Of a stretch of DNA of 32,000 bases, positions 3,912 through 31,329 are shown piece after piece (positions within the stretch are counted from its first letter, which is position 1; each line of letters begins with the position of its first letter). Location: assembly GCF_000010625.1 (NCBI RefSeq), contig NC_010296.1:2490001-2522000 (forward strand). The letters are read 5' to 3'. Under the pieces are notes generated by a model that had not been told where the DNA came from, did not search any database, and worked only from the letters and a program-made list of their open reading frames with translations. The position numbers and the translations under genes were made by a program. This DNA is from Microcystis aeruginosa NIES-843 (GTDB lineage Bacteria > Cyanobacteriota > Cyanobacteriia > Cyanobacteriales > Microcystaceae).

Positions 3912-4204
3912 TACTTAGTACGACCAGCAAAGAAATTAGTGAAAGCTGTTTGTAGGTGTCTTAACCCTTGTGGTAAAGGTACACAGCTAACTTCGTTTAA
4001 AAAGTCTAATTCTTCTTGTTTTTTCCAATCGGTCAACATTGAAGAAGTTTGAGCGTAGCCTACTCTTTCTTGTCTTTCATACCAAGCTTGTGTTCGTTCG
4101 TGGAGAGCTTTATTGTAAACCAATCTTACACAGCCCAAAGTGCGCCGCAATAGCGACTCTTGTTCGGGTGTGGGGTAAAATCGAAACGAATAGGCTTTTT
4201 CCAT

Positions 4205-11574: not shown

Positions 11575-11784
11575 GAGTTTTTTCCTAATTCAAAATAGAG
11601 AGATTCTGAAAAACCTTTTGTGGTTTTTGCTGCTCAGCATATTTCTAAATTGCTGAAGATTAGAGATTTAGATAGATTAATTTTAGATTTGATGATTAAG
11701 TTTTTTTAAGTTCAATCTATCTAGACATCATCTATATCTAGTTTAAAATAGGAAAGTCCTCAGCAAAATGGAGAATCTTTGGCA
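11549..11784 (-). repeat. 5' cassette copy B (236 bp, uninterrupted) of the PEP-CTERM gene at 10798-11574
   Basis: See copy A. The similarity ends exactly at ...aatctttggca (11784), where the IS5-type transposase remnant begins. Confidence 0.85.
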
Positions 11785-14452: not shown

Positions 14453-14716
14453 ATGATGACAACTGTTCAATCTCCTTGTACCGTTGAAGACATTCAAAAC
14501 TGGCTCGTTGATCAGTTTGCTCAACAACTCGATGTTGACCTTGATGACATTGATATTGAAGAACCTTTTGATAATTATGAACTCGACTCACGAAAAGCGT
14601 TAGTTTTATTAGGACGCTTAGAAAAATGGCTCGGAAAGGAATTAAATCCTGTGGTCATTTTTAACTATCCCACCATTGCTGAATTAGCAACCCGATTAGG
14701 GGAATTATATCTTTAA
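14453..14716 (+). CDS. Free-standing acyl/peptidyl carrier protein, 87 aa
   Basis: The phosphopantetheine-site motif is YELDSRKAL (Ser46, 14588-14590), followed by FNYPTIAELATRL, which is typical of PKS-type ACP helix III. It is the first gene of the co-directional cluster. Confidence 0.85.
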   Translation: MMTTVQSPCTVEDIQNWLVDQFAQQLDVDLDDIDIEEPFDNYELDSRKALVLLGRLEKWLGKELNPVVIFNYPTIAELATRLGELYL

Positions 14717-14778: not shown

Positions 14779-16575
14779 ATGGTTACGACTGACACAAAAG
14801 TTTATGATGTTGTGATTATGGGAGCAGGTTTCGCCGGGGTCTGTCAAGCAAGACACTTACTTCTAAATGTTCCCAACATTAAAATTGCACTGATCGATCC
14901 TCGTCCAGAAGAAAGAACTAATAAAGACCTCAAAATTGGCGAATCAATGGTGGAAATTGCCACCCTATTTGTTTGCAAAGAATTGGGGTTATACGAATAT
15001 ATGATCGAAAATCATCCTCCCAAATTTGGACTAAACTTCCATTGGCCGAAAAAGAAGGACAAAACGACTACCACTGATGATTATTATCATATTTGGAATA
15101 ATCGTCAACCGCCTTTGGCTTCCTTTCAAATGAACCGGGCAAAATTTGAACGGGATCTCCTAAAAATGAATAAAGCGATGGGAGCAACTTTTTATCAAGG
15201 TCGAGTTGTAGATGTTGATTTAACCTCAAAAGATGAACTCAAAACCGTTATCGCTAAAGTCGAAAATGAACAGATAACTCTCAAAGCAAAGCACGTTATT
15301 GATGCCGCAGGACGGAAGTTTATTATTGGTCAAAAAACCGATAATCTCCTATTTGGAGCAGATAATCTTTTTGGACTTGATACCGGTTCTGTTTGGGTTA
15401 GAGTTAACAATATTGATCGCACCATTTTTCACGATGGTTATGATCCTTATGGTACAACTTGTAGCCATTACTATGCAACCAATCATTGGTTCGGTCATGG
15501 TCATTGGTTATGGATGATTCCTACCGAGAAGGATAGTCAAGAAATTTCCATTGGCATTGCTTATCATCGTTCAGCGATCGCTGATAAGCAAATTAATACA
15601 AAAGAGAAATTCTATGCTTTCTTAAAAGCCAATCATGAAATTCTTTATCGTTTAGTTAATAGTGGTGAAAATATTGATTTCCATTATTTACCGCGACCTT
15701 CTCATACAAGCAAAACCATGTTTTCAGCCGATAATTGGTATGTAATTGGAGATGCAGCTTGTATTTTTGATCCTTTTTATTCTTTGGGATCTAGCATGAT
15801 TTCCTATCAAATTGAATGTACGACAGAAATTATTCGCAGTAAATTAGTAGGAGAAGCTATTGGCGAGAAAAAACAAGCGGCGTACAATGATTTTATCCTA
15901 ACTTACACGCGGTTTAATAACCATCTAATCAAACATCATGATCAACAGTTAGGAGATGCCAGTATTATGAGTTGGCGGATCTATCATGATTATATCTGGT
16001 GGTTTGGTGTCCAAGTTCCGATGTACACGGGAAAATGGTTTTTAGATTTAGATTTTCTCACCCGATATACTCCTGGTTTAAAAGAACATCAAATGGGGTA
16101 TTGTGAACATCTTTATCAGCAATTTAACGAAGTCATCGCTCAGGGCAAAAATTTAGGGTTTATGGATTGTCATCGAGGAGATCAACTTTGGGGTGATTAT
16201 CATACCTTAAAACATTTTGATGATTTTGTTGAAAATGCCAAACTTGAACCCAGACGGTGTAATGTTTTTGCTTGTATGAAAACCACTAATTTTTATACAG
16301 CCATTTGGTATGCTAATTTTCTCTGGAAAGGGTTTGGAGTCACTGCTTTTGTTAAACCGAAGAATCTTTTCTACTTACTGAAGCACTTACAAGGGGTAAT
16401 ACAAGCGGACATCGCAGAAAGAGTTTATAAACATTTCACCAAAGGAATTCCCTCCAATCGCAAAATTGCGGAAATGCGTCAAGAGTTTACCACCTATCAC
16501 TATCAGCCAGAACTTAATTCGTGGGAACAAGAAACAGCACCTTTAGCTTCTCAAAAAATTACAGTTACTGTTTAA
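14779..16575 (+). CDS. Flavin-dependent halogenase, paralog 1, 598 aa
   Basis: It has GxGxxG (VVIMGAGFAG, 14821-14838), Lys in DLKIGES (K52), WxWxIP (GHWLWMIP, 15505-15522) and FxxPxxSxG (IFDPFYSLG, 15766-15789). An RBS aggag lies 8-12 nt upstream. Confidence 0.85.
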   Translation: MVTTDTKVYDVVIMGAGFAGVCQARHLLLNVPNIKIALIDPRPEERTNKDLKIGESMVEIATLFVCKELGLYEYMIENHPPKFGLNFHWPKKKDKTTTTDDYYHIWNNRQPPLASFQMNRAKFERDLLKMNKAMGATFYQGRVVDVDLTSKDELKTVIAKVENEQITLKAKHVIDAAGRKFIIGQKTDNLLFGADNLFGLDTGSVWVRVNNIDRTIFHDGYDPYGTTCSHYYATNHWFGHGHWLWMIPTEKDSQEISIGIAYHRSAIADKQINTKEKFYAFLKANHEILYRLVNSGENIDFHYLPRPSHTSKTMFSADNWYVIGDAACIFDPFYSLGSSMISYQIECTTEIIRSKLVGEAIGEKKQAAYNDFILTYTRFNNHLIKHHDQQLGDASIMSWRIYHDYIWWFGVQVPMYTGKWFLDLDFLTRYTPGLKEHQMGYCEHLYQQFNEVIAQGKNLGFMDCHRGDQLWGDYHTLKHFDDFVENAKLEPRRCNVFACMKTTNFYTAIWYANFLWKGFGVTAFVKPKNLFYLLKHLQGVIQADIAERVYKHFTKGIPSNRKIAEMRQEFTTYHYQPELNSWEQETAPLASQKITVTV

Positions 16576-16642: not shown

Positions 16643-18442
16643 ATGGTTGCTACTAACACTAATGAGTATGATGTTGTGATTATGGGAGCAGGTTTTGCTG
16701 GGGTCTGTCAAGCAAGACACTTACTTCTAAATGTTCCCAACATTAAAATTGCACTGATCGATCCTCGTCCAGAAGAAAGAACTAATAAAGACCTCAAAAT
16801 TGGCGAATCAATGGTGGAAATTGCCACCTTATTTGTTTGCAAAGAATTGGGGTTATACGAATATATGATCGAAAATCATCCCCCTAAATATGCTCTTAAT
16901 TTTCATTGGGCAAAAGATGCAGATAAAACTGACACCATTGATGATTATTATCATATTTGGGCGAATCGACAATTTCCCCTTGGCACGTTTCAAATGAATC
17001 GGGCAAAGTTTGAACGGGATTTGCTCAAAATGAATAAGAAAATGGGAGCAAGTTTCTATCAAGGGCGTGTGGTTGATGTGGACATTACTCCTACTGATGA
17101 GATGCACACCGTCAAAGTTAAAATGATTGACGGAAATTATCACGAACTGAGAGCAAAACACCTTGTTGATGCAGCAGGACGTAAGTTTATTATTGGCCAT
17201 AAAACTGATAACGTTATTGTAGGTGCAGATAATTTATTTGGAGTTGATACGGGATCGGCTTGGGTACGGGTTAAAAATATAGATCGCACCATTTTTCATG
17301 ATGGTTATGACCCTTATGGAGCAACTTGTAGCCATTACTATGCAACCAATCATTGGTTTGGTCATGGTCATTGGTTATGGATGATTCCCACAGAAAAAGA
17401 CTCCCAAGAAATCTCTATTGGAATTGCTCAACATCGCAGTGTTATCGCCAACGACCAAATTAATACTCAAGAGAAGTTTTATGCTTTCCTAAAAGCCAAT
17501 CACAATCTACTTTATCGCTTAGTCACCTCTGGCGAAAATGTCGATTTTCATTATCTTCCTAGAGTTTCCCATACTAGCAAAACGATGTTTTCTCAAGATA
17601 ATTGGTATGTAGTTGGAGATGCTGCTTGTATTTTTGATCCCTTTTACTCTTTGGGAACAAGTATGATTGCTTTTGCGATTGAAAGTATCACGGAAATTAT
17701 TCGTTCTCAACTTGCAGGAGAAGCGGATACAGAAGAAAAACGGGCTGCTTACAATGACTTTAACCTTACCTATACTCGATTGAATAATCATCTCATTGAA
17801 CACCATGATAAACAATTAGGTCATGCTAGTATCATGAGTTGGCGTATTTATGCCGAATATATGTGGTGGTTTGGGATTCAAATTCCCCTTTATGTCGGCA
17901 AATGGCATTTAGATACTGGCTTTATTTCCCGTTATGTGCCAAAAGTTCAAGCGGATATAAAAGGATATTGGCATCATCTCTATGAACAATTTAACCAATT
18001 AGTTGAGCAGAATAAAAATATTGGTTTTATGGATGCTCATCGTACTGATCAATTAATCTGGGGTTATCATACCCTCAAACACTTCGATGACTTTATCGAA
18101 AACACTAAATTTGAACCAAGACGGTGCAATGTTTTCGCTGGAATTAAAGCGACCAGTTTTTATACAGCAGTTTGGTATGCAAAGTTCCTCTGGAAAGGAT
18201 TTGGTTTTTCAGCTTTTCTCAATCCAAAAAATCTGTCCTATCTGTTTGGACATCTTAATGGCGCAGTTCAATCTGCCATTACGGAAATGGTCTATAAATA
18301 TTTGACTCGTAAGCTTTCTGATAATAGCCAAATTGAACAAACTCGCCAAGAATTTACCAACTATCGTTATCGTCCTCAACTAAATCCTTGGGTAAAAAAA
18401 GAAGTAAAAAGATCGCCCGAAAAAATACCTATTATTGTCTAA
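16643..18442 (+). CDS. Flavin-dependent halogenase, paralog 2, 599 aa
   Basis: It carries the same four motifs as paralog 1 (VVIMGAGFAG, DLKIGES, GHWLWMIP, IFDPFYSLG). The two are collinear along their whole length. The RBS context is near-identical (caggagaatttgaacaATGg versus taggagaatttcaccaATGg). Confidence 0.85.
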   Translation: MVATNTNEYDVVIMGAGFAGVCQARHLLLNVPNIKIALIDPRPEERTNKDLKIGESMVEIATLFVCKELGLYEYMIENHPPKYALNFHWAKDADKTDTIDDYYHIWANRQFPLGTFQMNRAKFERDLLKMNKKMGASFYQGRVVDVDITPTDEMHTVKVKMIDGNYHELRAKHLVDAAGRKFIIGHKTDNVIVGADNLFGVDTGSAWVRVKNIDRTIFHDGYDPYGATCSHYYATNHWFGHGHWLWMIPTEKDSQEISIGIAQHRSVIANDQINTQEKFYAFLKANHNLLYRLVTSGENVDFHYLPRVSHTSKTMFSQDNWYVVGDAACIFDPFYSLGTSMIAFAIESITEIIRSQLAGEADTEEKRAAYNDFNLTYTRLNNHLIEHHDKQLGHASIMSWRIYAEYMWWFGIQIPLYVGKWHLDTGFISRYVPKVQADIKGYWHHLYEQFNQLVEQNKNIGFMDAHRTDQLIWGYHTLKHFDDFIENTKFEPRRCNVFAGIKATSFYTAVWYAKFLWKGFGFSAFLNPKNLSYLFGHLNGAVQSAITEMVYKYLTRKLSDNSQIEQTRQEFTNYRYRPQLNPWVKKEVKRSPEKIPIIV

Positions 18443-18555: not shown

Positions 18556-21500
18556 ATGAAACCTATTGCAATTATTGGAATTGGCTGTCGTTTTCCTAAA
18601 GCGAATAATTATCATGAATTCTGGCAATTATTATCAAAGGGAATTGACGGCATCACCGAAATTCCTAAGGAGCGCTGGAATATTGATGAATATTATGATG
18701 AGAATCCCGAAACACAGGGGAAAATGAATTCTCGTCATGGGGGATTTTTATCGCAAGTTGATGGGTTTGATCCTAATTTTTTCGGGATTTCTCCTAGAGA
18801 AGCCTTATTAATGGACCCTCAGCAACGCTTACTCTTAGAAGTAGCTTGGGAAACCATTGAAGATGCAGGAATAACACGGGAACAATTGGCAGGATCGAAA
18901 ACAGGTGTATTTGTGGGAATTGCCACAAACGATTATAGTCGCATTCATGCAGGATATAGCCACCATCCCCAAGGCTATGATTTAACAGGAAACTGCACAA
19001 ATATCGCAGCCGGTCGTCTTTCCTATCTTTTTAACTTAAAAGGTCCTAGTTTAGCGGTAGATACGGCTTGTTCTTCCTCTTTGGTCGCAGTGCATCTCGC
19101 TTGTCAAAGTTTATGGAATGATGAGTCTTCAATGGCGATCGCAGCAGGGGTTAACCTGATTTTATCCCCTATTGGTCATATTGCGTTAAGCAAATTGAAA
19201 GCCTTGTCTCCTGATGGACGTTGCAAAACCTTTGATGAAAGCGCCAATGGATATGTGCGAAGTGAGGGAGTCGGTTGTATTATTCTCAAACCGTTGGCTC
19301 AAGCGATCGCAGATAAGGATTCCATTTATGCGTTAATTAGAGGAACTGCTATTAATCATGATGGACGCAGCAAGGGGTTAACGGTTCCCTATGGACCGGC
19401 ACAAGAAAGCTTGATTCGATCAGCCTTGAAAAATGCCGAAATTGAGCCAAAAGAGCTTAATTATGTGGAATTACACGGGACGGGAACATCTTTAGGCGAT
19501 CCCATCGAAGCGATGGCCTTGGGAGCTGTGTTAGAAGAAGGACGAGACAAGGATAATCCTTGTTTGGTGGGATCGGTAAAAAGTAATATAGGACATCTCG
19601 AAGCAGCGGCAGGAATTGCCAGTGTGATTAAGATGGCACTTTCCCTGAAAAACAAGCAAATTCCGCCCAGTCTGCATTTTAACAAGCCGAATCCTTATAT
19701 TCCCTTTGATAAGTTACCCCTTAAGCTTCAATCATCTTTAATTACCTGGCCACAACAGGAAACAACCGCCAAGGGGGGAATTAGTTCTTTTGGATTTTCG
19801 GGAACAAACGCTCATCTTATCTTAGAAGAAGCTAATTTATCTCACCCAGAACCAATTTCCTTAACTTTCCCTCATTTACTCCCTTTATCTGCCCATAGTC
19901 AAGAAGCGGTTAGAGATTTAGCTCAAAATTATGAAGATTTCCTGAAAGATCAAGCTTTAACCGCTGAATTTGTCCAGAATCTTTGCTATAGTGCTAGTGC
20001 AAGACGGACTCATCATGCTCATCGTCAGGCGGTTGTGGTTCATTCTCATGAGGAATTATTGAAGGGTTTAAAAGAGTTAGAAACGATTGATTTATCGACT
20101 CAATCTAAGCCTTCAAAACGTAAAACAAACATTGCTTTTGTCTTTTCTGGCCAAGGACCTCAATGGTGGGCAATGGGACGGGAATTATTAGCAACAGAAC
20201 CGGTTTTTCGCTCTGTTATTAAACAATGTGATACTTTGATTCAAAAGTATGCTAACTGGTCATTATTAGCGGAATTTAATGCGTCTGAAGCTCAATCTCG
20301 TTTACAAGAAACAGAAGTTTCTCAACCTGCTTTATTCGCTTTACAAGTTGGATTAGCTAAATTATGGCAATCTTGGGGGATTAATCCTAAATCTGTGGTT
20401 GGTCACAGCTTGGGAGAAGTTGCAGCCGCCCATTTTGCGGGAATTCTAACTCTTGAGGAAGCCATTCATTTGATTTGTCAGCGCGGACAGTTGATGCAGC
20501 AAGCAACAGGAAATGGAAAAATGCTTGCGATTGAATTACCTGTTAATGAGGTAGAAAATTTAATGGCTGCTTGGGAAAATAAATTAGAAATTGCTGCCAT
20601 TAATAGTCCCTATTCAACGGTTGTATCTGGGGAGTCTCAATCGATCGATCAATTAATTGCTGAATTGTCCCAAAACCGTCCCGATATTTTTTCCAAAGAA
20701 CTACCTGTTAATTATGCTTTTCATAGTCAACAAATGACTACTTTTGCGGATAATTTAGTTAAAAAATTAGGAGAGCTTCAGCCTCAAAAAAGCACCATAC
20801 CAATTTTCTCAACCGTAACAGGTGATCAACAAGAGGGGACATTATTTAATGCCGCTTATTGGGGACAAAATATGCGTCAGACGGTACGTTTTAACCCTGC
20901 TATTGAAGCAATGATTAAATCTCGTCATACTATCTTTGTTGAAATCAGCCCCCATCCTGTTTTATTGGGATATATTAAAAGTACCTTACGAGAACAAGAT
21001 ACTGAGGGATTTGTTTTACCCTCTCTAAGACGAGAACATTCTGAACGGGGAACGCTATTAAATTCTTTAGGAAAGCTCTACACTTGGGGACATTCGATTA
21101 ATTGGGAAAAATTATATCCCGAAAATTGTCAGTTTGTTAAGTTACCGCTTTATCCTTGGCAACATGAATCTTATTGGGTAAGTGATGCTAAACCTCAATT
21201 TAAGTCTGTTTCGTCTGCTTCTAGTTTACTTAATTTATTAGTTGAAGGCAAAACTGAACAACTAACGGAACAGTTAAATCAAAGTGATCAATTATCACCT
21301 GAAGTCAAGCAGTTTTTACCGCAATTATTACAGTTATTGGTGGGAGAAGATACAACAATAGCAGGCCAGATGCCTATCCTACAGGATGTGAGTAAAAACT
21401 GTTACAAAGTGGAATGGCAACTCAGTCCTTTAAACTTAAAAAATAAGCCTTCTCAAGGAGAACGGTGGTTAATTTTTAATGATAATCAAGTAGTCGGTAA

Positions 21501-23289
21501 AGCCTTAGCAACAACCCTAAATGATGCTTATGTTTTGGTGTCTTCTGGTCAAACTTATCAGAAGTTGGTGTCAGGTCATTATCAAATTAATCCTAATAAT
21601 GTTAAGGATTTTCAACGGTTGTTACAAGATCTAACTGAACCAATCACCAAAGTGGTCTATTTATGGGGGTTAGACAGCGATATTAACTCCCAACCCTCTC
21701 AAACTCGTTCTTATGCCAGTTTATTGTATCTAACACAAGCTTTAGCTCAATTTAAAACTAAAGAACCCCCTAAACTTTGGGTCATAACACAACAAGCACA
21801 ACCGGTGAATGATGCTGTTAAACCGCTTAAAATAGCGCAAACGTCCTTATGGGGAATGGGTCAAGTCATTGCCCTTGAATATCCTAATTTATGGGGAGGA
21901 TTGATTGATTTAGAAGAAAAACAACCATCGTCTCAAGCAATTATTGCTGAAATAACAGAAAATCTAGGAGAAGATCGCATCGCTTTTCGGGATCATCAAC
22001 GATATGTTGCCCGTTTAGTACCTAATAAAGCAATAAAAAGCTCAAACATCAATTTTAAGAAGACAGAAGCCAGTTATCTCATTACTGGTGGCTTAGGCTC
22101 TTTAGGATTAAGTTTAGCAGATTGGTTAATTGAAAAAGGTGCCAATCATTTAATCTTAACCAGTCGGCGAGCCTTAGCTGACCATTCAACGGATAAACAG
22201 GTAAAAATCAAAGCTTTAGAGGATAAAGGGGCTACTATTCAAGTAATTGCCGCTGATGTCAGTGATCATCAACAAACCCGTCAACTTTTTCACCAAATTC
22301 AAGAAAATTGTCCTCCCTTACAGGGTATTATTCACGCAGCAGGGGTTTTGAGCGATCGCACCATTGACAAGATGGATTTCCATTGTTTTGAGAGCGTATT
22401 TAATCCTAAAGCAGCAGGAGCGTGGAATTTACACCAACTTTCTCAAGATTTATCCTTAGATTTCTTTGTTTGTTTCTCTTCCATGTCTGCTTTAATCGGA
22501 TCACGAGGTCAAATTCACTATGCTGCTGCCAACCATTTCTTAGATGGTTTAATGCACTACCGTCGGGAGTCTGGACTCACAGGGTTAAGCATTAACTGGG
22601 GACCTTGGGCTCAAGGGGGAATGGCCACGCAAGGCTATGAAGAAGGCTTAAAACGCCTGGGAATCAATCCATTACAACCTAATTTAGCCCTAGATACTTT
22701 AGATGCTCTAATCAATGGTAATGTTACTCAAACAATGGTAGCAGAGATTGATTGGTCTAAGTTTAAAACGATTGTTGCAGCAAAAGGACGGGTGGCTTTC
22801 TTAGAAGCGTTATTCAAGCAAGATAAGGATAATTTTGTGCAAACGGTCGAGAATTTCCCCCAAACCATCCAAAAAAACCCTCCTCACCGACGAGTCACCC
22901 TATTAACCACTCGTTTACAGCAAGAAGTAGCGCAAGTCTTAGGAATTCACGGAGATACTTTACCAGATACTGATCAAGGGTTCTTTGAGATGGGAATGGA
23001 TTCTTTAATGTCCGTAGAACTGAAACATCGTCTAGAAGGCTTATTTTCTGTCTCTTTACCTTCTACCTTTGCTTTTGAGTATCCCACTATTGGTGATGTG
23101 GTGCAGTATTTTGTCCAAGAAGTATTTGCTTGGCAAGATAATTCAGAAAATTCTCAGATTTCTTCGGAAACCGAGTCAACGGATGTTGTAGTACTCAACC
23201 AAGCCCTTGCTGAATTGGAGTCACTTTCAGAAGCAGAAACAGAAGCTTTGATGGAACAGGAATTGGCGGAATTAGAAGCATTACTTTAA
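18556..23289 (+). CDS. Type I modular PKS, KS-AT-KR-ACP, 1577 aa, no loading module
   Basis: KS: DTACSSS (Cys172, 19069-19071), HGTGT, NIGHLEAAAG. AT: GHSLGE (Ser618, 20407-20409), YAFHS. KR: TGGLGSLG (22084-22107), HYAAAN, VLSD. ACP: GMDS (Ser1483, 23002-23004). The acidic helical C-terminal tail ELESLSEAETEALMEQELAELEALL looks like a docking domain. No DH HxxxGxxxxP motif was seen. Confidence 0.9.
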   Translation: MKPIAIIGIGCRFPKANNYHEFWQLLSKGIDGITEIPKERWNIDEYYDENPETQGKMNSRHGGFLSQVDGFDPNFFGISPREALLMDPQQRLLLEVAWETIEDAGITREQLAGSKTGVFVGIATNDYSRIHAGYSHHPQGYDLTGNCTNIAAGRLSYLFNLKGPSLAVDTACSSSLVAVHLACQSLWNDESSMAIAAGVNLILSPIGHIALSKLKALSPDGRCKTFDESANGYVRSEGVGCIILKPLAQAIADKDSIYALIRGTAINHDGRSKGLTVPYGPAQESLIRSALKNAEIEPKELNYVELHGTGTSLGDPIEAMALGAVLEEGRDKDNPCLVGSVKSNIGHLEAAAGIASVIKMALSLKNKQIPPSLHFNKPNPYIPFDKLPLKLQSSLITWPQQETTAKGGISSFGFSGTNAHLILEEANLSHPEPISLTFPHLLPLSAHSQEAVRDLAQNYEDFLKDQALTAEFVQNLCYSASARRTHHAHRQAVVVHSHEELLKGLKELETIDLSTQSKPSKRKTNIAFVFSGQGPQWWAMGRELLATEPVFRSVIKQCDTLIQKYANWSLLAEFNASEAQSRLQETEVSQPALFALQVGLAKLWQSWGINPKSVVGHSLGEVAAAHFAGILTLEEAIHLICQRGQLMQQATGNGKMLAIELPVNEVENLMAAWENKLEIAAINSPYSTVVSGESQSIDQLIAELSQNRPDIFSKELPVNYAFHSQQMTTFADNLVKKLGELQPQKSTIPIFSTVTGDQQEGTLFNAAYWGQNMRQTVRFNPAIEAMIKSRHTIFVEISPHPVLLGYIKSTLREQDTEGFVLPSLRREHSERGTLLNSLGKLYTWGHSINWEKLYPENCQFVKLPLYPWQHESYWVSDAKPQFKSVSSASSLLNLLVEGKTEQLTEQLNQSDQLSPEVKQFLPQLLQLLVGEDTTIAGQMPILQDVSKNCYKVEWQLSPLNLKNKPSQGERWLIFNDNQVVGKALATTLNDAYVLVSSGQTYQKLVSGHYQINPNNVKDFQRLLQDLTEPITKVVYLWGLDSDINSQPSQTRSYASLLYLTQALAQFKTKEPPKLWVITQQAQPVNDAVKPLKIAQTSLWGMGQVIALEYPNLWGGLIDLEEKQPSSQAIIAEITENLGEDRIAFRDHQRYVARLVPNKAIKSSNINFKKTEASYLITGGLGSLGLSLADWLIEKGANHLILTSRRALADHSTDKQVKIKALEDKGATIQVIAADVSDHQQTRQLFHQIQENCPPLQGIIHAAGVLSDRTIDKMDFHCFESVFNPKAAGAWNLHQLSQDLSLDFFVCFSSMSALIGSRGQIHYAAANHFLDGLMHYRRESGLTGLSINWGPWAQGGMATQGYEEGLKRLGINPLQPNLALDTLDALINGNVTQTMVAEIDWSKFKTIVAAKGRVAFLEALFKQDKDNFVQTVENFPQTIQKNPPHRRVTLLTTRLQQEVAQVLGIHGDTLPDTDQGFFEMGMDSLMSVELKHRLEGLFSVSLPSTFAFEYPTIGDVVQYFVQEVFAWQDNSENSQISSETESTDVVVLNQALAELESLSEAETEALMEQELAELEALL

Positions 23290-23353: not shown

Positions 23354-26300
23354 ATGGGTTCTCATCACCAGAAAACAGAATTAACGCCGTTACAAAAAGC
23401 AGTTATTGCGCTTAAAGAAGCTCGTAACAAGATTGAAGCCTTAGAACGGCAAAAAAATGAACCGATCGCTATTATTGGCATGGGGTGTCGTTTTCCGGGG
23501 GGTGCAAATAGTCCAGAGGCGTTTTGGGAGCTATTATCAAGGGGAAAAGAAGCAATTGTCCCTGTTCCTAGCCAAAGATGGGATGCGGAGGCTTATTATG
23601 ACGAAAATCCCGATCTTCCTAACAAAACTTATGCTCGTTATGGCGGGTTTCTTGACGCAGTAGATCAATTTGATCCGCAATTTTTCGGGATGACTCCCCG
23701 GGAGGCGATCGCACTAGACCCTCAACAACGATTATTATTAGAGGTAAGTTGGGAAGCGTTAGAAAATGCCGGAATTGCACCTCAGAAGCTGACAGGGACG
23801 CAAACAGGCGTATTTGTGGGCATTGGCTTGGATGATTACGCAAAACGGCAAATTAAGCAACAAATTCCCATTGATGCTTATACGGGATCAGGAAATGCGT
23901 TTTGTTTCGCTTCAGGTCGCTTATCCTATTTTTTAGGGCTACAAGGACCCAGTTTAGCCATTGATACCGCCTGTTCTACCTCTTTAGTCACGGTACATCT
24001 GGCTTGTCAAAGCTTACGCAACAGAGAGTCAAATTTAGCTTTAGCAGGGGGAGTTAGTTTAATGCTATCCCCGGAGGTGACGTTATATCTTTCTAAAACC
24101 CGCGCTTTGTCCCCTGATGGTCGTTGTAAAACCTTTGATAAAGATGCAAATGGCTATGTGAGAGGGGAAGGCTGTGGAATGGTGGTCTTAAAACGCTTTT
24201 CTGATGCTATAAGCGATGGAGATAACATTTTAGGGGTAATTAGAGGCTCGGCGGTCAATCAAGATGGCCCCAGTAGTGGTTTAACGGTTCCCAATGGATC
24301 AGCGCAAATGGCAGTTATTCGTCAAGCATTGGAGAATGCAAAAGTAAAACCCGAACAAATTAGCTATTTAGAAGCACACGGGACAGGAACAGCCTTAGGC
24401 GACCCTATTGAAGTACGGGGGATTAACAATATCCTATGCAAAGATCGTTCCACTGATAACCCCTTAATGGTAGGTTCAGTAAAAACGAATATCGGCCACC
24501 TAGAAATTGCAGCAGGGATGGCCAGCCTATTAAAAGTCATTTTATCCCTAAAAAATCAAGAAATCCCCCCCCATCTTCATTTTAAAGAACTTAATCCTGA
24601 TTTAGCGGCTGCTGCAACCGCTCTCAAAATTCCTACCGCTTCTCTGCCTTGGCAGCGAACAGAAGAACCTAGAAGGGCTGGAATTAGTGCATTTGGATTA
24701 AGTGGCACAAATGCCCACATTATCATCGAAGAACCGCCTCAATTAAGCTTTAATCCTTCTGAAGTGGATCGTCCTGCTCATTTACTCACTCTATCAGCGA
24801 AAAGCGACGATGCTTTAGATGATTTAGCGCAAAAATGGGTCAACTATTTAGAGAAAAATCCTCAATTAAACCTAGCAGACTTAGCTTTTAGTGCCAACAC
24901 GGGACGAGGACAATTTAACCATCGTCTGGCAATTTTGGCAAAATCAACCCTTGAAGCCAAGGACTCTTTAACAGCATTTACGCAAAAACAACCTTGTTTG
25001 AATGTTTTAAGCCAAGCAGTTGCAAAAAGTCGTCAAAATAAGATTGCTTTCTTGTTTACAGGACAAGGTTCTCAGTATGCAGACATGGGACGACAACTGT
25101 ATGAAACTCAACCCACCTTTCGTCACGCCTTAGAGGAATGCGATCGCTTATTGCAACCTTACCTAGAAAAGTCCTTATTAGAGGTTTTATACAGTGATTC
25201 TAGCTTATTAGACCAAACTGCTTATACTCAACCCGCCTTATTCGCCATTGAATACGCATTATATAAATTATGGCAGTCTTGGGGCATTAAACCTGATGGG
25301 GTTTTAGGTCATAGTGTGGGGGAATATGTGTCCGCTTGTGTTGCAGGGGTTTATTCTCTCGAAGAGGGAATCAAGTTAATTGCCGAAAGAGGACGCTTAA
25401 TGCAGTCTTTACCCCAAAAAGGCGCAATGGCAGCCATATTTGCCCCTATTGAAACAGTAAAATCTGTTATTTCTCCTTATGGGGATCAAGTTGAGATTGC
25501 AACTATCAATAGTTCGGAAAATATTGTTATTTCGGGTGATCAGGAAGCAATTAATCAGATTAAAGCAGATTTAGAATCACAAAGCATTGAAGTGCGTCTG
25601 CTTAAGGTATCTCATGCTTTTCATTCCGGGATGATGCAACCGATATTAGCAGAATTTAAAGTGATCGCTGCTAAAATTAGCTATAAAACACCCCAATTAG
25701 ATTGGATTTCCACCGTAACAGGTGAAGAAATCAGCCAAGCAGTAACAGAGGACTATTGGTGTCAACAAGTGCGTCAATGCGTCCAATTTGCCCCAGCAAT
25801 AGAAACCTTAGCCAGCCAAGGTTATAATCTATTTATTGAAATCGGCTCTCATCCGATTTTAACGAGATTGGGTCAAAAAACCTTAGCAAACCCTGATTAT
25901 CTGTGGTTATCTTCCCTACAACGAGGACAGGATGATTGGCAAATTTTATTACAAAGTGTGGCGAAATTAGCCGTTTCTGGGGTTAATATTGATTGGAATG
26001 GCTTTGATAAAGATTATGCTCGTCTTCGTCTTCCTTTACCTACTTATGCTTTCCAAAAACAACCCTACTGGTTAACCGTAGAGGCGCCTGGTTTACGCCC
26101 AACCCAAGGGACAGAAACCGTAGAAGGGCAAGACTTACACCAAAGTCAAGAACGAGAAACTCTAGTGGCGCCAGGCTTGCGCCCAACCCAAAAACAAAAC
26201 GAAACCAAGGCTGAAAGCTTAGAAAGTCAATTAATTGCCTTAATAAGTCAAATTACGGGTTTAAATCCTCAGCAATTGAGTTTGAATGTTTCCTTAGAAG

Positions 26301-28177
26301 CAGATTTAGGGTTAGATTCTATTATGATGACCCAATTAATGAACGGGTTACTATCATTAATTCCTGAAGAGCAACGTAGTCAATTTAGTGAAACCTTTTC
26401 CCTACGCCATTTAATGCAAGTCTCCAATCTTCAGGAATTATTAACCATTATTCAATCTCATACTTCATCCCCCAAACCTCAAATCTCTAACCCTAAACCA
26501 CAAACCAAAAACCTCAAACCACAACCCTCGAATCTGGTTCCTATTCTCCATAGTCAAATTCCCTTGTTAATGAGTTATTGGAGTCTCAATTCTAATAGTT
26601 TATTTACTAAGGTTAAAATTGCAGGAGAATTTGACTTAAATATTGCTCAACAAGCATGGAAACTGTTAATTAATCGACATCCCATGTTACGGGCGCAATT
26701 TCAGATTCCAGAAGATGCAACCTGCTTTGCAGACTATCAATTAGAAGTGCTAGAAAATCCCATTCCTCCTGAAATTCTTGTTAAAGATTTCACCACTTTA
26801 ACTCCTGAGGAACAAGGGGAGAAAATTGAAGAAGAAATCTATCATTGGTTAAACTATAACTGGTCCTTAACGCAATGGCCGTTGCATGGATTTTCTGTTC
26901 TTAAATTATCTGATCAAATTCATCAATTATTTTTAGGGAATGAACACTTAATTTCGGATGGGTTAAGTAACCATGTCATGATGCGGGAATTCTTGGAAAT
27001 TTACCGGGCTATAGTTGCTAAAGAAACGCCAAATCTTCCCCCTACATTGACTGTAGAAGATTATCGAAAACAGGTTCAATTAATGAACGATTGGCAAGAT
27101 ATTGAGGAAGATCGAGCCTTAGCAGAATACAATAATGCTGTGTCTGGAATGTCCTATCGTTGGCAACCTAAACAGCAGAAAAATGCTCAAAAATCTCCTC
27201 TCTTTTACAATCAAAAGTATCTACTTTCAGCAGAAACTACCTCTCAATTAATCGACAAAACCCGTCAATGGCGAGTCCCGATGAATGCACTATTATTAGG
27301 TGCATTTATAAAAACTATGTCACAAATAGATTCAAAAGCTGAAAATATCGGAATTTCGATTCCCACCAGTGGACGAATTTACCCCGAAGTAGATGCAACA
27401 GGTGTGGTTAGTAGTTTTGCTCAAAATCTTGCATTAAGTTTTGCTAAACCTCAATCTGAGCAAGATTGGCCGACCTTTTTAAGCCAAATTCAGCAAACTG
27501 TACAACAACATATTGGCACCGGTTTAGATCGGGCGCAAACTCGTCAAATGGGAACAATTTTTCGAGACAATATTACCCTAGAAAAGGGTAAAATTCCCCC
27601 TCATAGTCTTTCTTTAATACAGGAGGCTTTAAAGTCTAATTTATACCTTCCTTATACGGGACAAACTCACCTGCAACCTCAGTATGATGCTTTATCAATT
27701 ACTGACTATCAAGCAGGAGGAATGAACGCAACTGGAACAATTGATATTTTGCAAGAAATATTTAATAATCGTCTTCATTTATTTGCAAGTTACGATTACC
27801 ATCACTTTGACTTATTGCTAATAGATCAATTAATGACAGCCTATGTCAGCCAAATTGAAGAACTAGCCAATTTACCCGTCCAAGATCAAGTTATTATTTC
27901 TCATTCTTCCTCTATTTCTCTTAATACAGAGATTGAAGAAATGCTACGACAAATAACTTCCGAAATTTGTCATTGGACAATTGAAGAAGACGAAATAAGT
28001 GATGATTTGGAGGCAGATTTAGGACTAGATTCTTTAGAACGCATTCGCCTTGTTACCAAGCTAGAAGGGATTTATGGCAAACAATATCGCCAAGACCTTT
28101 TAAATTGTCGTACCTTGCAAGAAATGGCTGCTATTTTAGCCCCATCTCAACCTTCAATCGTCAACAGCTATTCGTAA
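23354..28177 (+). CDS. Hybrid PKS/NRPS, KS-AT-ACP-C-T, 1607 aa, with no A domain between C and T
   Basis: The N-terminal coiled coil LTPLQKAVIALKEARNKIEALERQ looks like a docking domain. KS: DTACSTS (Cys207, 23972-23974), HGTGT, NIGHLEIAAG. AT: GHSVGE (Ser654, 25313-25315), HAFHS. ACP: LGLDS (Ser989, 26318-26320). The condensation-like domain has EHLISDG (His1198, 26945-26947). The terminal carrier has LGLDS (Ser1560, 28031-28033). Confidence 0.85.
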   Translation: MGSHHQKTELTPLQKAVIALKEARNKIEALERQKNEPIAIIGMGCRFPGGANSPEAFWELLSRGKEAIVPVPSQRWDAEAYYDENPDLPNKTYARYGGFLDAVDQFDPQFFGMTPREAIALDPQQRLLLEVSWEALENAGIAPQKLTGTQTGVFVGIGLDDYAKRQIKQQIPIDAYTGSGNAFCFASGRLSYFLGLQGPSLAIDTACSTSLVTVHLACQSLRNRESNLALAGGVSLMLSPEVTLYLSKTRALSPDGRCKTFDKDANGYVRGEGCGMVVLKRFSDAISDGDNILGVIRGSAVNQDGPSSGLTVPNGSAQMAVIRQALENAKVKPEQISYLEAHGTGTALGDPIEVRGINNILCKDRSTDNPLMVGSVKTNIGHLEIAAGMASLLKVILSLKNQEIPPHLHFKELNPDLAAAATALKIPTASLPWQRTEEPRRAGISAFGLSGTNAHIIIEEPPQLSFNPSEVDRPAHLLTLSAKSDDALDDLAQKWVNYLEKNPQLNLADLAFSANTGRGQFNHRLAILAKSTLEAKDSLTAFTQKQPCLNVLSQAVAKSRQNKIAFLFTGQGSQYADMGRQLYETQPTFRHALEECDRLLQPYLEKSLLEVLYSDSSLLDQTAYTQPALFAIEYALYKLWQSWGIKPDGVLGHSVGEYVSACVAGVYSLEEGIKLIAERGRLMQSLPQKGAMAAIFAPIETVKSVISPYGDQVEIATINSSENIVISGDQEAINQIKADLESQSIEVRLLKVSHAFHSGMMQPILAEFKVIAAKISYKTPQLDWISTVTGEEISQAVTEDYWCQQVRQCVQFAPAIETLASQGYNLFIEIGSHPILTRLGQKTLANPDYLWLSSLQRGQDDWQILLQSVAKLAVSGVNIDWNGFDKDYARLRLPLPTYAFQKQPYWLTVEAPGLRPTQGTETVEGQDLHQSQERETLVAPGLRPTQKQNETKAESLESQLIALISQITGLNPQQLSLNVSLEADLGLDSIMMTQLMNGLLSLIPEEQRSQFSETFSLRHLMQVSNLQELLTIIQSHTSSPKPQISNPKPQTKNLKPQPSNLVPILHSQIPLLMSYWSLNSNSLFTKVKIAGEFDLNIAQQAWKLLINRHPMLRAQFQIPEDATCFADYQLEVLENPIPPEILVKDFTTLTPEEQGEKIEEEIYHWLNYNWSLTQWPLHGFSVLKLSDQIHQLFLGNEHLISDGLSNHVMMREFLEIYRAIVAKETPNLPPTLTVEDYRKQVQLMNDWQDIEEDRALAEYNNAVSGMSYRWQPKQQKNAQKSPLFYNQKYLLSAETTSQLIDKTRQWRVPMNALLLGAFIKTMSQIDSKAENIGISIPTSGRIYPEVDATGVVSSFAQNLALSFAKPQSEQDWPTFLSQIQQTVQQHIGTGLDRAQTRQMGTIFRDNITLEKGKIPPHSLSLIQEALKSNLYLPYTGQTHLQPQYDALSITDYQAGGMNATGTIDILQEIFNNRLHLFASYDYHHFDLLLIDQLMTAYVSQIEELANLPVQDQVIISHSSSISLNTEIEEMLRQITSEICHWTIEEDEISDDLEADLGLDSLERIRLVTKLEGIYGKQYRQDLLNCRTLQEMAAILAPSQPSIVNSYS
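26075..26200 (+). repeat. Three in-frame 42-bp (14-aa) tandem repeats in the AT-ACP linker of the hybrid PKS
   Basis: The units are TVEAPGLRPTQGTE / TVEGQDLHQSQERE / TLVAPGLRPTQKQN. Units 1 and 3 share the GC-rich cores ggcgcctggtttacgccc (26083-26100) and ggcgccaggcttgcgccc (26167-26184). Confidence 0.85.
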
Positions 28178-28179
28178 AA

Positions 28180-28286
28180 TATAGCCCGACAAATTAATGT
28201 TAGGACGAAGAAAAATATGTCATTCCTGCGGTAGGTAGGAATCCACAAATATTTATGATATCCTGAACTTTTTTTGTCCGGCTATA
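28180..28286. repeat. 107-bp segment bounded by 14-bp inverted repeats, immediately after the hybrid PKS stop codon
   Basis: TATAGCCCGACAAA (28180-28193) pairs with TTTGTCCGGCTATA (28273-28286; rc TATAGCCGGACAAA, 13/14). An internal hairpin is attcct-gcggtaggt-aggaat. I see no TSD. Confidence 0.5.
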
Positions 28287-28343
28287 CCTCAATCAGCGAA
28301 GGTTCGTTATCAGTCCTTAATGGCTACCTTTTAAAAGACCAAT

Positions 28344-28362
28344 GGGCGCAAGCCTTGCGCCC
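28344..28362. repeat. Perfect GC-rich palindrome GGGCGCAAG-C-CTTGCGCCC
   Basis: Read directly, 34 nt upstream of the A-C gene start. It resembles the core of the 42-bp coding repeats at 26083-26100 and 26167-26184. Confidence 0.7.
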
Positions 28363-28395
28363 CTACCACCTAACATCTAATAGAGGATTATTCTT

Positions 28396-31329
28396 ATGGC
28401 TTTTTCCCCCGAAATTCCCTACTATAAAATTATTAAACAAGCACAATTAACCCCTGATGCGATCGCTGTTTTAGATGAGACTTGTCCCCTAACTTATCAA
28501 CAATTAGACCATCTTTCTAATCAAGTTGCTGCTTATTTACAGACTCAAGGTGTTAACCCCAATACCAGAGTAGGAATTATGACGGAACGAAATCCAGGCA
28601 TGATTATTGGTATTTTGGGAATTCTTAAAGCAGGTGGCTGTTATGTACCCTTAGATCCCGATTATCCCGTCGAAAGATTGCGTTATATTCTTGATCATGC
28701 CACTATCGAGATTTTACTTACCGAACATCAAGTAAGTGAACAGTTAATTTCCTGTGTGACAGAACCTTTACCCTTGCAAACCGTCCTCTTTTTAGATGAA
28801 GGAGAAAGATTAAACAAAATTAATGATTTAACTCAGATTACCACTTCTATCTGGCAAAAACACAGTAAAGAATCCATAAATCTTTGTAATCGTCCTGAGG
28901 ATTTAATGGTAATTCTTTATACGTCTGGATCAACAGGACGGCCAAAAGGGGTAATGTTAAACCATCGCGGTTATATGAATCGTCTAGAATGGATGCAAAA
29001 GACATTTTCCCTGAAAACAGGCGATCGCGTTGCACAACGCACCTCTTTTTGCTTCGATATTTCCGTATGGGAAATTTTCTGGACGTTAATGGAAGGTGCA
29101 ACAATATGTCCCGTCAAACGCGAAGTAGTCTTAAATCCTTGGGAATTTGCTGCATGGATTAAAAAGACTAAAATTAATGTAATGCACTTTGTTCCCTCCC
29201 TCTTTGGGGAATTTATCAGTGCGATTGAAAACGAATCTTGGACATTTCCTGATCTACGCTGGTTAATCTTTAGTGGGGAAGCCTTACCCATGTCTTTTAT
29301 CCAAAAATGGCTTGATTGTTATGGATTAAAGACAGGTTTAGCCAATCTTTATGGACCGACAGAAGCCTCAATTGATGTGACTTACCATATTATTACAGAA
29401 CGTCCTGACGAACGCACCAGCAGCCAAATTCCCATCGGAAAAGCGATCGATAATGTCTATCTCAAAGTGTTGGATGATCAGATGCAACCGGTTAAACAAG
29501 GGGAAATGGGAGAACTTTGGCTTGGTGGCGTACAATTAGCATTAGGATACCTCAAAGATCCTGAAAAAACCGCTAAAGCGTTCTGTTCTAATCCTTTTTC
29601 TGATGTCTCTGGTGACTATATTTATCGGACAGGTGATCTAGTCAAGGAATTACCCGATGGTACGCTGGAATATCATGGACGTATCGATAATATGGTCAAA
29701 ATTCGGGGTTTTCGCATTGAATTAGGGGAAATTGAGAGCATCTTAACCACTCATCCCAATGTCCGCGAGGCCGCCGTTTTAGCTATTGATTACGGTGAAG
29801 GACAAAAACGATTAATTGCTTGTTTATCGGGGGATAAAATCAAAAACCGAGTTCTCAAAGCACATTTAGAGCAGAAACTCCCCCATTACATGATTCCTCA
29901 ACGATTCGCTTGGTTTCCACAACTTGCTAAGAATCATAACGGAAAGTTAGACCGTAAAGCATTAGCCGCCGAATTACTTCCTGCTCCCGCTGCTCCCGCT
30001 GCTCCCCCTACTCCTTCTCTTATACCCCTTGGACCGGCACAAAGTTGGTTAGTCAACTATTTTGAACCTCCCTATCAATGGTTGGGTTATACTCGTTTTC
30101 TCTATCATCAGTCTTTGAATCTTGATATTTTCAATCAAGCCGCTAATCTTTTGGTGCAACGTCATGAAGCTTTTCGGACGGTTTGCCTACAAAATCAAGG
30201 TAAATGGCAGCAATACTTGATCAATGATCCTCAACCTATCCTAGCAGAGTATTGGGATGGAAGCCACTTAACAGAAGCAGAACGTAATGCTAAAATCAAA
30301 GCTCAAATGTCAGATTTAGCTAAAACAATCCAGATTGACCGTTGGCCACTCACTGCCACTCTTGTTGTTAAAGTTAGTCCCTATTGCTACGATATTACGA
30401 TGGTCGCTCACCACATCATTGCCGATATGTTAAGTGCAACCATCTTGTTTAAGGAACTTTGGAGTGCCTATCATCAATTATTGGTAGGAAGTGATCCGAC
30501 TTTTCCTAACCCTAATCCTCAGTCTTACTTAGATTTTGTGCAAGTCTTGAGGGATGAGGAGAAAAAAGGAACAATGAACGAACACTTGAATTATTGGAAG
30601 GAACAATTTCCCGATGCAGAGAGTCGCTTTGAAGTCCCCGTCGATCATGTCAAAGGCCCAAATATTGAAGCTTCTGCCGAAAGTGCGCGATTTGTCCTAA
30701 GTAAAGCGCAAACTAAACAGTTATTAAGCCAAGGCAAGGCTTATTATCAGTCTAACTTTTATCCTATTCTCCTTGCTCCTTTATACCGTTTATTAGGTGA
30801 TTGGAGTCAACGCAAACAGGTGGTTATCAGTCATCGTAGTCATGGGCGAGATTTAGGCGAAGGTCAGTCTTTTATGGAAAGTATGGGCAATTATGCTGTA
30901 AATTTTCCCATAGGCATTAATTTATCCACTTCTACGACTTGGCAAAAAACTATCAGTACCATCAATGAGCAGTTTGAAAGCTTACCAATGAATGGCGTAA
31001 CTTATGATTGGATAGGTGAGTCTTTACCTGAATATCTCTATCCTGATAGTAATTTAACCCCAGTAAGGGCTAATTATCTGGGAAATCGTTCGGTTCCTCT
31101 CTCTGACTTGTTTGAGTTTGTTTATGGCGAGCGCGATTGTCGTTTATCGCCACTGGATCAAAAACGTACCACATTGATTGAATTCTTTTTCCTAATCATA
31201 GATGGTCAGTTAGAGATAAGAATTGAATATTCTCGTAATTTCCATCTTCCTACGACCATTCAAAAAATCGGACAAGATTATCTCATTCTTCTTGAGGAAT
31301 TAGAGCCTATTGGCGTTGCTGATTCGTAA
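28396..31329 (+). CDS. NRPS-like protein, adenylation domain fused to a condensation-like domain, with no carrier domain, 977 aa
   Basis: A-domain core motifs run in order: LTYQQLD, LKAGGCYVPLD, YTSGSTGRPKG (28918-28950), FDISVWE, NLYGPTE, GELWLGG, YRTGD, GRIDNMVKIRGFRIELGEIE, LPHYMIP, NGKLDRKAL. A Pro/Ala linker PAPAAPAAPPTPS (about 29976-30020) follows directly, then a C/E-like domain (PLGPAQSWL...; HHIIADMLS, His672-His673, 30409-30414). No GxDS / LGxDS carrier motif occurs anywhere in the protein. Confidence 0.85.
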   Translation: MAFSPEIPYYKIIKQAQLTPDAIAVLDETCPLTYQQLDHLSNQVAAYLQTQGVNPNTRVGIMTERNPGMIIGILGILKAGGCYVPLDPDYPVERLRYILDHATIEILLTEHQVSEQLISCVTEPLPLQTVLFLDEGERLNKINDLTQITTSIWQKHSKESINLCNRPEDLMVILYTSGSTGRPKGVMLNHRGYMNRLEWMQKTFSLKTGDRVAQRTSFCFDISVWEIFWTLMEGATICPVKREVVLNPWEFAAWIKKTKINVMHFVPSLFGEFISAIENESWTFPDLRWLIFSGEALPMSFIQKWLDCYGLKTGLANLYGPTEASIDVTYHIITERPDERTSSQIPIGKAIDNVYLKVLDDQMQPVKQGEMGELWLGGVQLALGYLKDPEKTAKAFCSNPFSDVSGDYIYRTGDLVKELPDGTLEYHGRIDNMVKIRGFRIELGEIESILTTHPNVREAAVLAIDYGEGQKRLIACLSGDKIKNRVLKAHLEQKLPHYMIPQRFAWFPQLAKNHNGKLDRKALAAELLPAPAAPAAPPTPSLIPLGPAQSWLVNYFEPPYQWLGYTRFLYHQSLNLDIFNQAANLLVQRHEAFRTVCLQNQGKWQQYLINDPQPILAEYWDGSHLTEAERNAKIKAQMSDLAKTIQIDRWPLTATLVVKVSPYCYDITMVAHHIIADMLSATILFKELWSAYHQLLVGSDPTFPNPNPQSYLDFVQVLRDEEKKGTMNEHLNYWKEQFPDAESRFEVPVDHVKGPNIEASAESARFVLSKAQTKQLLSQGKAYYQSNFYPILLAPLYRLLGDWSQRKQVVISHRSHGRDLGEGQSFMESMGNYAVNFPIGINLSTSTTWQKTISTINEQFESLPMNGVTYDWIGESLPEYLYPDSNLTPVRANYLGNRSVPLSDLFEFVYGERDCRLSPLDQKRTTLIEFFFLIIDGQLEIRIEYSRNFHLPTTIQKIGQDYLILLEELEPIGVADS

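Follow-up and report, generated by a model that had tools for sequence, protein, structure and literature searches.

A 32,000-nucleotide stretch of the Microcystis aeruginosa NIES-843 genome (contig NC_010296.1, positions 2,490,001 to 2,522,000; hereafter the window) carries on its plus strand the end of a polyketide synthase (PKS) line that passes into a nonribosomal peptide synthetase (NRPS) module. A 1607-residue hybrid PKS (23354-28177) ends in a condensation (C) domain and a thiolation (T) domain; the 977-residue protein encoded next (28396-31329; the A-C protein) consists of an adenylation (A) domain and a second C-family domain, here called C2, which resembles epimerization (E) domains. 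The two proteins together probably form a conserved, circularly permuted NRPS termination module of the order C-T-A-E-like, cut in Microcystis in the linker between T and A. The domain arrangement is genuine, not a chance feature, and it is shared widely, with the permuted order as the conserved state and the gene split as a variant of some lineages only. The permuted unit is a variant within NRPS modules and not a new kind of system.

A carrier upstream of the adenylation domain

In the hybrid PKS, Pfam places a ketosynthase (KS, residues 36-410), an acyltransferase (AT, 566-878), an acyl carrier protein domain (ACP, ~947-1039), a Condensation match (1087-1385) and a PP-binding domain (1531-1594). 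KS, AT and ACP make up PKS module 2 (23354-26470), which has no ketoreductase (KR) and whose ACP serine, Ser989, is encoded at 26318-26320. The Condensation match covers part of the profile only (PF00668, 82.6 bits); by alignment the domain, C1, extends over ~1060-1520 (26531-27913), with its active-site motif EHLISDG at 26942-26962. The terminal carrier (PF00550, 27944-28135) has Ser1560 in LGLDSL (28031-28033), and the serines of both carriers are present. Within the C1 motif (E/H)HxxxD(G/A), 34 relatives all keep the catalytic His and the Asp, and the best matches of C1 in the Protein Data Bank (PDB) are true C and heterocyclization (Cy) domains: it looks like a competent PKS-to-NRPS condensation domain. 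Only ~10-30 residues separate C1 from T, in which no A domain fits, and Pfam found none in the PKS; the ACP-C-T ending put forward in the preliminary description is confirmed.

The A-C protein contains, according to Pfam, AMP-binding (14-386), AMP-binding_C (445-517) and Condensation (543-968) domains. Its A domain (28435-29964; PF00501, PF13193; 430 bits to TIGR01733) is complete, as had been claimed. Ten core motifs are readable in order: LTYQQL, LKAGGCYVPLD, YTSGSTGRPKG, FDIS, NLYGPTE, GELWLGGVQLALGYL, YRTGD, GRIDNMVKIRGFRIELGEIE, LPHYMIP and the A10 motif NGKLDR (residues 515-520). The LPxP motif that normally follows A10 is kept as LPAP. Where the T domain usually stands, between A10 and C2, there is a Pro/Ala-rich linker, AAELLPAPAAPAAPPTPSL, of 19 residues (524-542; 29965-30021). 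No PP-binding domain was found at Pfam E<=10, either in the whole A-C protein or in a 68-residue stretch across the linker; this and the length of the linker rule out a cryptic T domain. Both findings that could have overturned the earlier proposal, such a cryptic carrier and an A domain within the PKS, were looked for and not found. All the parts of a C-A-T module are present with intact motifs (C1 His and Asp, ten A motifs, the A10 Lys, the DSL serine of T). Their order is C-T-A rather than the collinear C-A-T, in the window as in all ten loci and all eight fused proteins examined.

The ten loci come from a scan of one genome per species, which gave 12 related loci; the window domains were mapped on ten of them by tblastn. 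ACP-C1-T-A-C2 is kept in every one, and the order ACP-C-T-A-C recurs in at least ten cyanobacterial genera. T and A lie on separate proteins in Microcystis, Nostoc parmelioides, a Xenococcaceae metagenome-assembled genome (MAG), Moorena, a Leptolyngbyaceae MAG and a MAG labelled as Gracilibacteria (L017). A single open reading frame (ORF) spans them in Capilliphycus, Lyngbya, Coleofasciculus and a partial locus (L015). The Capilliphycus protein, for instance, has T at 576-640, A at 664-1166, C at 1191-1624 and a short-chain dehydrogenase/reductase (SDR) at 1659-1880 (Pfam). In the databases, 81 clusters at 90% identity hold the A-C2 unit, from cyanobacteria, Proteobacteria and Clostridia: 36 are A-C only, 33 are fused C-T-A-C proteins of ~1650 residues and 12 are partial or bear an SDR. 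Pfam confirmed the fusion in Nostoc, Anabaena cylindrica, Gynuella sunshinyii and a Pseudomonadota MAG, and also in relatives with only ~28% identity in C2. In Gynuella, the T that precedes A is the sole carrier of the protein.

The T of the Microcystis PKS aligns with the T found directly 5' of A in the fused homologues. When the junction is aligned with the fused proteins, the Microcystis gene break falls exactly in the T-A linker of 20-45 residues: the PKS stops 12 residues past T, the A-C protein starts 5 residues ahead of a conserved EIPY, and no docking-type tails are seen at the split. A spacer of 218 nt (28178-28395, plus strand) takes the place of the linker, with GAGGA ~9 nt 5' of the ATG, and the ATG at 28396 is the first start after a stop, so the A-C ORF cannot extend upstream. 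The spacer also contains a GC-rich perfect hairpin (GGGCGCAAGCCTTGCGCCC, 28344-28362). The preliminary description had the A domain act on the preceding T as a trans-acting partner of a split module. That A serves this T is well supported by the conserved order, by the C-T-A-C fusions and by the position of the split in the linker; a split module with a trans A domain does not survive as the main description, the permuted order being the conserved state.

Read against GrsA numbering and compared across 76 relatives, the A-domain code DIWHISLIDK is identical in 55, and 74 share the type DxWHxSLIDK. The code is of the serine type DVWHxSLIDK, with Asp235 and Lys517; DVWHLSLIDK is the serine signature in the Stachelhaus code. 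The A domain is predicted to be serine-activating, and a code so nearly invariant over so diverged a family suggests a role of serine itself in the chemistry that follows.

AlphaFold2 (AF2) modelled the A-C protein with a mean predicted local distance difference test score (pLDDT) of 86 and a predicted template modelling score (pTM) of 0.54, the linker being disordered at 529-539 (pLDDT <50). In a T-A-C2 fragment of the Nostoc fusion, T is folded and helical (12-83) and the T-A linker disordered (85-101; pTM 0.50). These models fit independent domains on flexible tethers and are silent on docking. A Foldseek search with the A-C model returned A domains and A-T-C cross-module constructs, LgrA and DhbF being the best, with no separation of E from C domains.

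Some loci show further variation around the junction. In Nostoc parmelioides, C1 is followed by a tandem pair of T domains, and both precede the split and A (L009 9304-9549 and 9547-9765). In Moorena, a gene for an amine-oxidase-like flavoprotein lies between the C-T and A-C genes (L010 8335-9606). The gene boundary of Clostridium pasteurianum falls within the A domain, with a 4-nt overlap (L020 7401-10004 and 10001-13273). In Capilliphycus, the last PKS module is itself split: a P450 gene (L013 8044-9441) stands between the KS-bearing PKS and the ACP-C-T-A-C-SDR protein.

The epimerase-like last domain

C2 (30022-31299, plus strand) carries the motifs HHIIADM (30409-30429), SHRSHGRD (30829-30852) and ANYLGN (31069-31086). 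A single-sequence search of the PDB with C2 placed E domains at the top, namely PvdL-E2 (entry 9up2 is described as PvdL-E2-C3-A3-PCP3), bacitracin synthase 3, TycA-E and GrsA-E. With a profile of the C2 family, the ten best PDB matches are all E domains, over their full length and at 167-260 bits, whereas no true C domain scores above 98.6 bits, and that match spans only part of the domain. Profile scores of 28-59 bits ruled out several other members of the superfamily: a dehydrating CmodAA domain of the AmbE/AlbB type (59 bits for AmbE CmodAA), a Cy domain (~59), an X domain (45) and a PapA5-like domain (28). The second "C-like" domain of the preliminary description does belong to the C family. 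It is no ordinary condensation domain of the LCL, DCL or starter type: E domains score higher and most loci have no downstream carrier. In a neighbour-joining tree without bootstrap, the C2 family forms one clade, sister to the canonical E domains. On average it shares 22% identity with E domains and 17% with C1. An NCBIfam scan of the A-C protein named no informative family for C2, the list being dominated by matches to the A domain.

The similarity to E domains and the HHxxxD motif do not extend to the catalytic glutamate. In E domains this is the Glu of EGHGRE, GrsA E892. The alignment pairs VVISHRSHGRD of the window with LVQLEGHGRE of PvdL and RITLEGHGRE of BacC, which puts Arg814 of C2 in the place of the Glu. 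The Arg of the motif S-H-R-x-H-G-R-(D/N) is invariant in all 82 members of the C2 family, as is HHxxxD, and R-x-N-Y-L-G-N-R is nearly so. The surroundings of the domain differ as well: a T motif precedes each of the 15 canonical E domains sampled, whereas C2 follows A, and no C domain comes after it.

We searched a representative library of 1.84 billion proteins with the C2 profile; megasynthetases with many E and C domains ranked first, and the matches were filtered by motif. Among 142 newly listed top proteins, EGHGRE occurs in 116 and SHRxHGR in six. All six have the A10 motif directly upstream and 420-460 residues after SHRxHGR, enough for the rest of C2 and an SDR-sized domain. Among the top matches listed, SHRxHGR is found only directly after an A domain. 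To judge from its sequence, C2 is a derivative of the E fold under strong constraint; it lacks a defining feature of a canonical epimerase, and appears to be confined to the context of A followed by C2.

Predicted reactions and competing readings

We propose that the serine-specific A domain would aminoacylate the phosphopantetheine on Ser1560 of the PKS C-terminal T, and that C1 would then move the 5-hydroxy-3-oxoacyl chain from the PKS ACP to the seryl amine, giving N-(3-oxoacyl)-seryl-S-T. These two steps, drawn from domain logic and the fusions, we regard as highly likely. The A domain is assigned to the preceding T mainly because of the T-A fusions, and also because C1 needs an aminoacyl acceptor on T. 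The nature of the chain follows from the PKS modules. The last module lacks a KR in the window, in Nostoc (L009), in Capilliphycus (L013) and in Gynuella (L019), whose line is of the trans-AT type and ends in ...KR-ACP-KS-(ACP); the module before it has one. In Microcystis, this is PKS module 1, KS-AT-KR-ACP (18556-23289, plus strand; Pfam), a module that the related loci have kept. The beta-keto group of module 2 would thus be retained and module 1 would supply a beta-hydroxy unit, so that the predicted intermediate is N-(5-hydroxy-3-oxoacyl)-seryl-S-T.

C2, with its catalytic His kept and Arg for the catalytic Glu, would act on the T-bound thioester from the donor side, processing or offloading N-(3-oxoacyl)-seryl-S-T. 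We assign it this role because no thioesterase, reductase or further carrier follows: after C2, most loci have no carrier, thioesterase (TE) or reductase (R) domain. Most related loci have no biosynthetic gene beyond A-C; in Gynuella, C2 is followed by an unrelated restriction-modification locus, and in the Xenococcaceae MAG by a regulator and housekeeping genes. No thioesterase or other release enzyme was found in the flanks of four loci (L013, L014, L017 and L018). The pairing of A domain and carrier is inferred, and what happens chemically in the last step even more so. That step might be a Dieckmann release to a 3-acyl-5-hydroxymethyl tetramic acid, closure of a beta-lactone through the serine hydroxyl, an E1cB elimination of water that leaves dehydroalanine, hydrolysis, or transfer. 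With Arg standing opposite the His base where E domains have Glu, the site would be suited to stabilising an enolate or oxyanion. The invariance of serine favours chemistry that involves its hydroxyl. The Dieckmann option fits since the 3-oxo group is always kept and since the aurantoside pathway uses the canonical counterpart; a search at or near the terminus for a Dieckmann cyclase (TE, R* or TrdC-like) found no TE or R*.

In the aurantoside cluster, AtsG has the order KS-AT-ACP-C-A-T-TE and is accompanied by two halogenases in the proposed pathway (PMC9802089). Tetramate termini such as AtsG and those of fungal PKS-NRPS hybrids share with the module described here a non-reducing last PKS module whose 3-oxoacyl chain goes to a C domain for N-acylation of a carrier-bound amino acid; by domain content, the Microcystis line, too, would condense a 3-oxoacyl donor to a carrier-bound amino acid. 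The aurantoside and Microcystis clusters are further alike in their two halogenases and in a separate chain-building PKS. In contrast, tetramate termini run C-A-T and then TE or R*, whereas here C-T-A is followed by an E-like domain and a tetramate product is hypothetical. The literature on Dieckmann chemistry and tetramates in cyanobacteria yielded only the aurantoside analogy.

More tentatively, and with somewhat less than even confidence, we suggest that C-T-A-E* is a distinct and ancient type of termination module, in which the Glu-to-Arg exchange turned an epimerase-derived domain into a serine-dependent offloading or tailoring catalyst, perhaps for tetramate release, for beta-lactone formation or for dehydration of the N-acyl-seryl thioester. 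Its products would be lipids derived from N-(5-hydroxy-3-oxoacyl)-serine, chlorinated in Microcystis and exported together with conserved PEP-CTERM proteins.

Several observations weigh against the permuted termination module as we have drawn it. Serine is assigned from the specificity code alone. In the AF2 models the domains are confident, and the geometry between them is undefined (pTM 0.50-0.54). In Microcystis and Nostoc parmelioides, the A-C gene is succeeded by further synthase genes, so that C2 might not be the releasing domain in these two. In some relatives C2 is followed by a FabG-like SDR (PF00106, not an NRPS R domain), which could reduce the 3-oxo group and so argues against a universal Dieckmann release. 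Finally, the Clostridium pasteurianum locus, which encodes C-T-A..A-C-SDR, a major facilitator superfamily (MFS) protein and an FAAL-ACP-KS-AT... megasynthase starting with a fatty acyl-AMP ligase (FAAL), also has a type II thioesterase.

This last enzyme would suit a different role for C2, as a working epimerase that yields N-acyl-D-seryl-S-T, release being left to spontaneous cyclisation or to an enzyme whose gene lies elsewhere. C2 is nearest to E domains over its full length (GrsA, TycA and PvdL-E2 are its best full-length matches), and it has HHxxxD, xHGRx and NYLG in common with them; HHxxxD and the N-Y of FNYLG are invariant. We nonetheless think it unlikely that C2 epimerizes: the Glu of EGHGRE is Arg in 82 of 82 family members, whereas EGHGRE is kept in most of the newly listed top proteins of the library search (116/142). 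Moreover, no DCL-type C domain comes after C2, and the cyanobacterial flanks that were examined revealed no hydrolase. C2 also differs from E domains in forming a separate clade and in following A instead of T.

Marginally less probable still is that C2 is a true condensation catalyst, passing the N-acyl-seryl thioester to a soluble amine or alcohol or to the ACP unit of the PfaA-like protein. It would then be likened to VibH or to the terminal C domain of FkbP/RapP. In favour of this, HHxxxD is intact, a KS-AT-ACP gene follows in Microcystis and Nostoc parmelioides, and chain release by a terminal C domain has examples in FkbP/RapP and CroK-C2. FkbP and RapP are C-A-T-C modules that end PKS lines and use pipecolate. 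They resemble our module in having two C-family domains, one A and one T, the second C-family domain being terminal with no carrier after it; here, however, A and T are permuted, the terminal domain belongs to the E clade with Glu exchanged for Arg, and serine is predicted instead of pipecolate. VibF of vibriobactin biosynthesis, Cy-Cy-A-C-T-C, likewise has a C-family domain instead of T directly after A, but its T is still downstream of A, whereas here it is upstream. Against it, C2 matches E domains far better than it does any C domain, and E domains have no open acceptor site. Most loci lack a following carrier, and a KS takes over a chain without any C domain.

Loading in trans has precedents. 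Modules without an A domain are loaded this way in yersiniabactin biosynthesis (Cy-T of HMWP1, by the A domain of HMWP2) and by T-C proteins of the viomycin and capreomycin systems, for example CmnI. The Microcystis module resembles these only in its split form, as a C-T pair without A served by an A domain on another polypeptide. Their A domain is shared and has its own cis T; the A domain here has none and, in a third of the relatives, is covalently downstream of its T. The preliminary description gave no precedent for a trans-acting A domain fused to the next C-like domain, but ClbH of colibactin biosynthesis (A1-C-A2-T) is one: the free carrier ClbE is charged by its serine-activating A1 (PMC5055756). 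Like the A domain of the window, ClbH-A1 has no T after it, is fused to a C-family domain and acts on a carrier that is not downstream.

By analogy with ClbH-A1, which is serine-specific and C-fused and has a free-standing partner (PMC5055756), the A domain of the window might load serine on the free carrier encoded at 14453-14716, or on another ACP, to make a modified extender, with the C-T pair served otherwise. The preliminary description had also considered that A loads this free carrier in addition. We hold such loading to be very improbable: the carrier is of the Pks13 type that accepts acyl chains from FAAL and is FAAL-fused in relatives, the window has no dehydrogenases of the ClbD/ClbF type, T and A are fused in 33 clusters, the Gynuella protein has only the T before A, and no other A domain is at hand for the C-T pair. 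ClbH-A1 itself differs in that it serves aminomalonyl-ACP synthesis and in that its C domain belongs to a normal C-A-T module, whereas here A would load the T of the assembly line and the next domain is terminal and E-like.

That the locus is decayed or mis-assembled, a frameshifted canonical module or inactive remnant, could be suspected from the transposase in the window and the plasticity of Microcystis genomes (PMC3741299), but it is close to excluded by the identical protein in six independent assemblies, an order kept down to 28% identity, fully intact catalytic motifs and the transcription in Lake Erie blooms of a cluster matching its description (NRPS-T1PKS-hglE-KS with a tryptophan halogenase; 10.1101/2022.10.12.511943).

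Neither a module whose T precedes its A domain nor this E-like clade came up in full-text literature searches, in a corpus that lacks most subscription journals, where a prior description is possible. The Microcystis reviews consulted do not discuss the C-T | A-C module. Models of NRPS structure and engineering take the carrier to be attached to the mobile C-terminal subdomain of A and to travel along with it. The permuted module has the same parts with the carrier before A and a 50-kDa domain hung on the A subdomain. A carrier between an upstream C and a downstream A is the mirror image of the textbook topology, and it tests how much of the canonical architecture is required. T|A is, in addition, a split point already in natural use, and C2 may represent a new catalytic use of the epimerase fold.

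Possible starter supply and export, and neighbouring genes

A free-standing carrier protein of 87 residues (14453-14716, plus strand), which matches the N-terminal ACP of Pks13 in NCBIfam, is likely the starter-acyl carrier of PKS module 1. Homologues of it precede the first KS in three related loci (L011-L013), in one of which the carrier is fused to FAAL (L012 2-1960). No FAAL is encoded within the window. The A-C gene is not the last of the Microcystis cluster. It is followed by genes that, by sequence, are those of a PfaA/PfaC-like synthase of the polyunsaturated fatty acid (PUFA) or heterocyst-glycolipid kind: contigs with an identical A-C protein go on to encode a KS-AT-ACP protein, a 239-residue protein, a KR-dehydratase (KR-DH) protein and a FabA-FabA protein. 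Such a synthase 3' of the A-C gene is found only in Microcystis and Nostoc parmelioides. As relatives draw their starter from FAAL-ACP, while the Microcystis carrier is free-standing and the window has no FAAL, the PUFA-like synthase is a plausible source of the starter chain and may replace FAAL in this role. The 239-residue protein between the PfaA-like and KR-DH genes (L001 17098-17817) has 71% identity in Nostoc parmelioides and no Pfam match.

Within Microcystis, the A-C protein is 97-98% identical to those of the loci of M. aeruginosa and Microcystis sp. T1-4. The identical protein is encoded on six contigs from independent samples, and its 90% cluster counts 310 member sequences. Two tandem flavin-dependent halogenases of ~598 residues, weakly CmlS-like, precede the PKS genes on the plus strand (14779-16575 and 16643-18442); they are not present in the related loci examined. 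The product of the cluster is probably a chlorinated lipid derived from an acyl-serine.

Two cluster descriptions in the literature fit this one. The first is of the orphan cluster 'MIC1' of NIES-843 and T1-4, with adjoining NRPS and PKS genes and transporters of the resistance-nodulation-division (RND) type over 37-39.6 kb (PMC3741299). The second is of an 'NRPS-T1PKS-hglE-KS' cluster with a tryptophan halogenase, reported as transcriptionally active in Lake Erie blooms (10.1101/2022.10.12.511943). Since this orphan cluster of a bloom-forming genus is reported to be transcribed there, its product may matter ecologically.

The minus strand of the window encodes an RND pump, an HlyD-type protein, two secreted PEP-CTERM-like proteins and a transposase. 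The PEP-CTERM-like proteins (9325-10299 and 10798-11574) carry a signal peptide and a PEP-CTERM-like anchor at the C-terminus, and Pfam identifies no further domain in them. In eight related loci (L010-L017), the neighbours after C2 are transporter genes (MFS, HlyD/FtsX/ABC) and PEP-CTERM genes; homologues of the two PEP-CTERM-like proteins adjoin the C-T-A-C cassette in seven of them (L010-L015 and L017) and are conserved neighbours. The transposase, of the DDE type (DDE_5; 1678-2946), lies at the cluster edge. A short ORF of 94 residues is located within the cluster (11743-12027, minus strand), and the stretch 2001-4000 of the window shows a strong AT skew (-0.20) and contains no long ORF.

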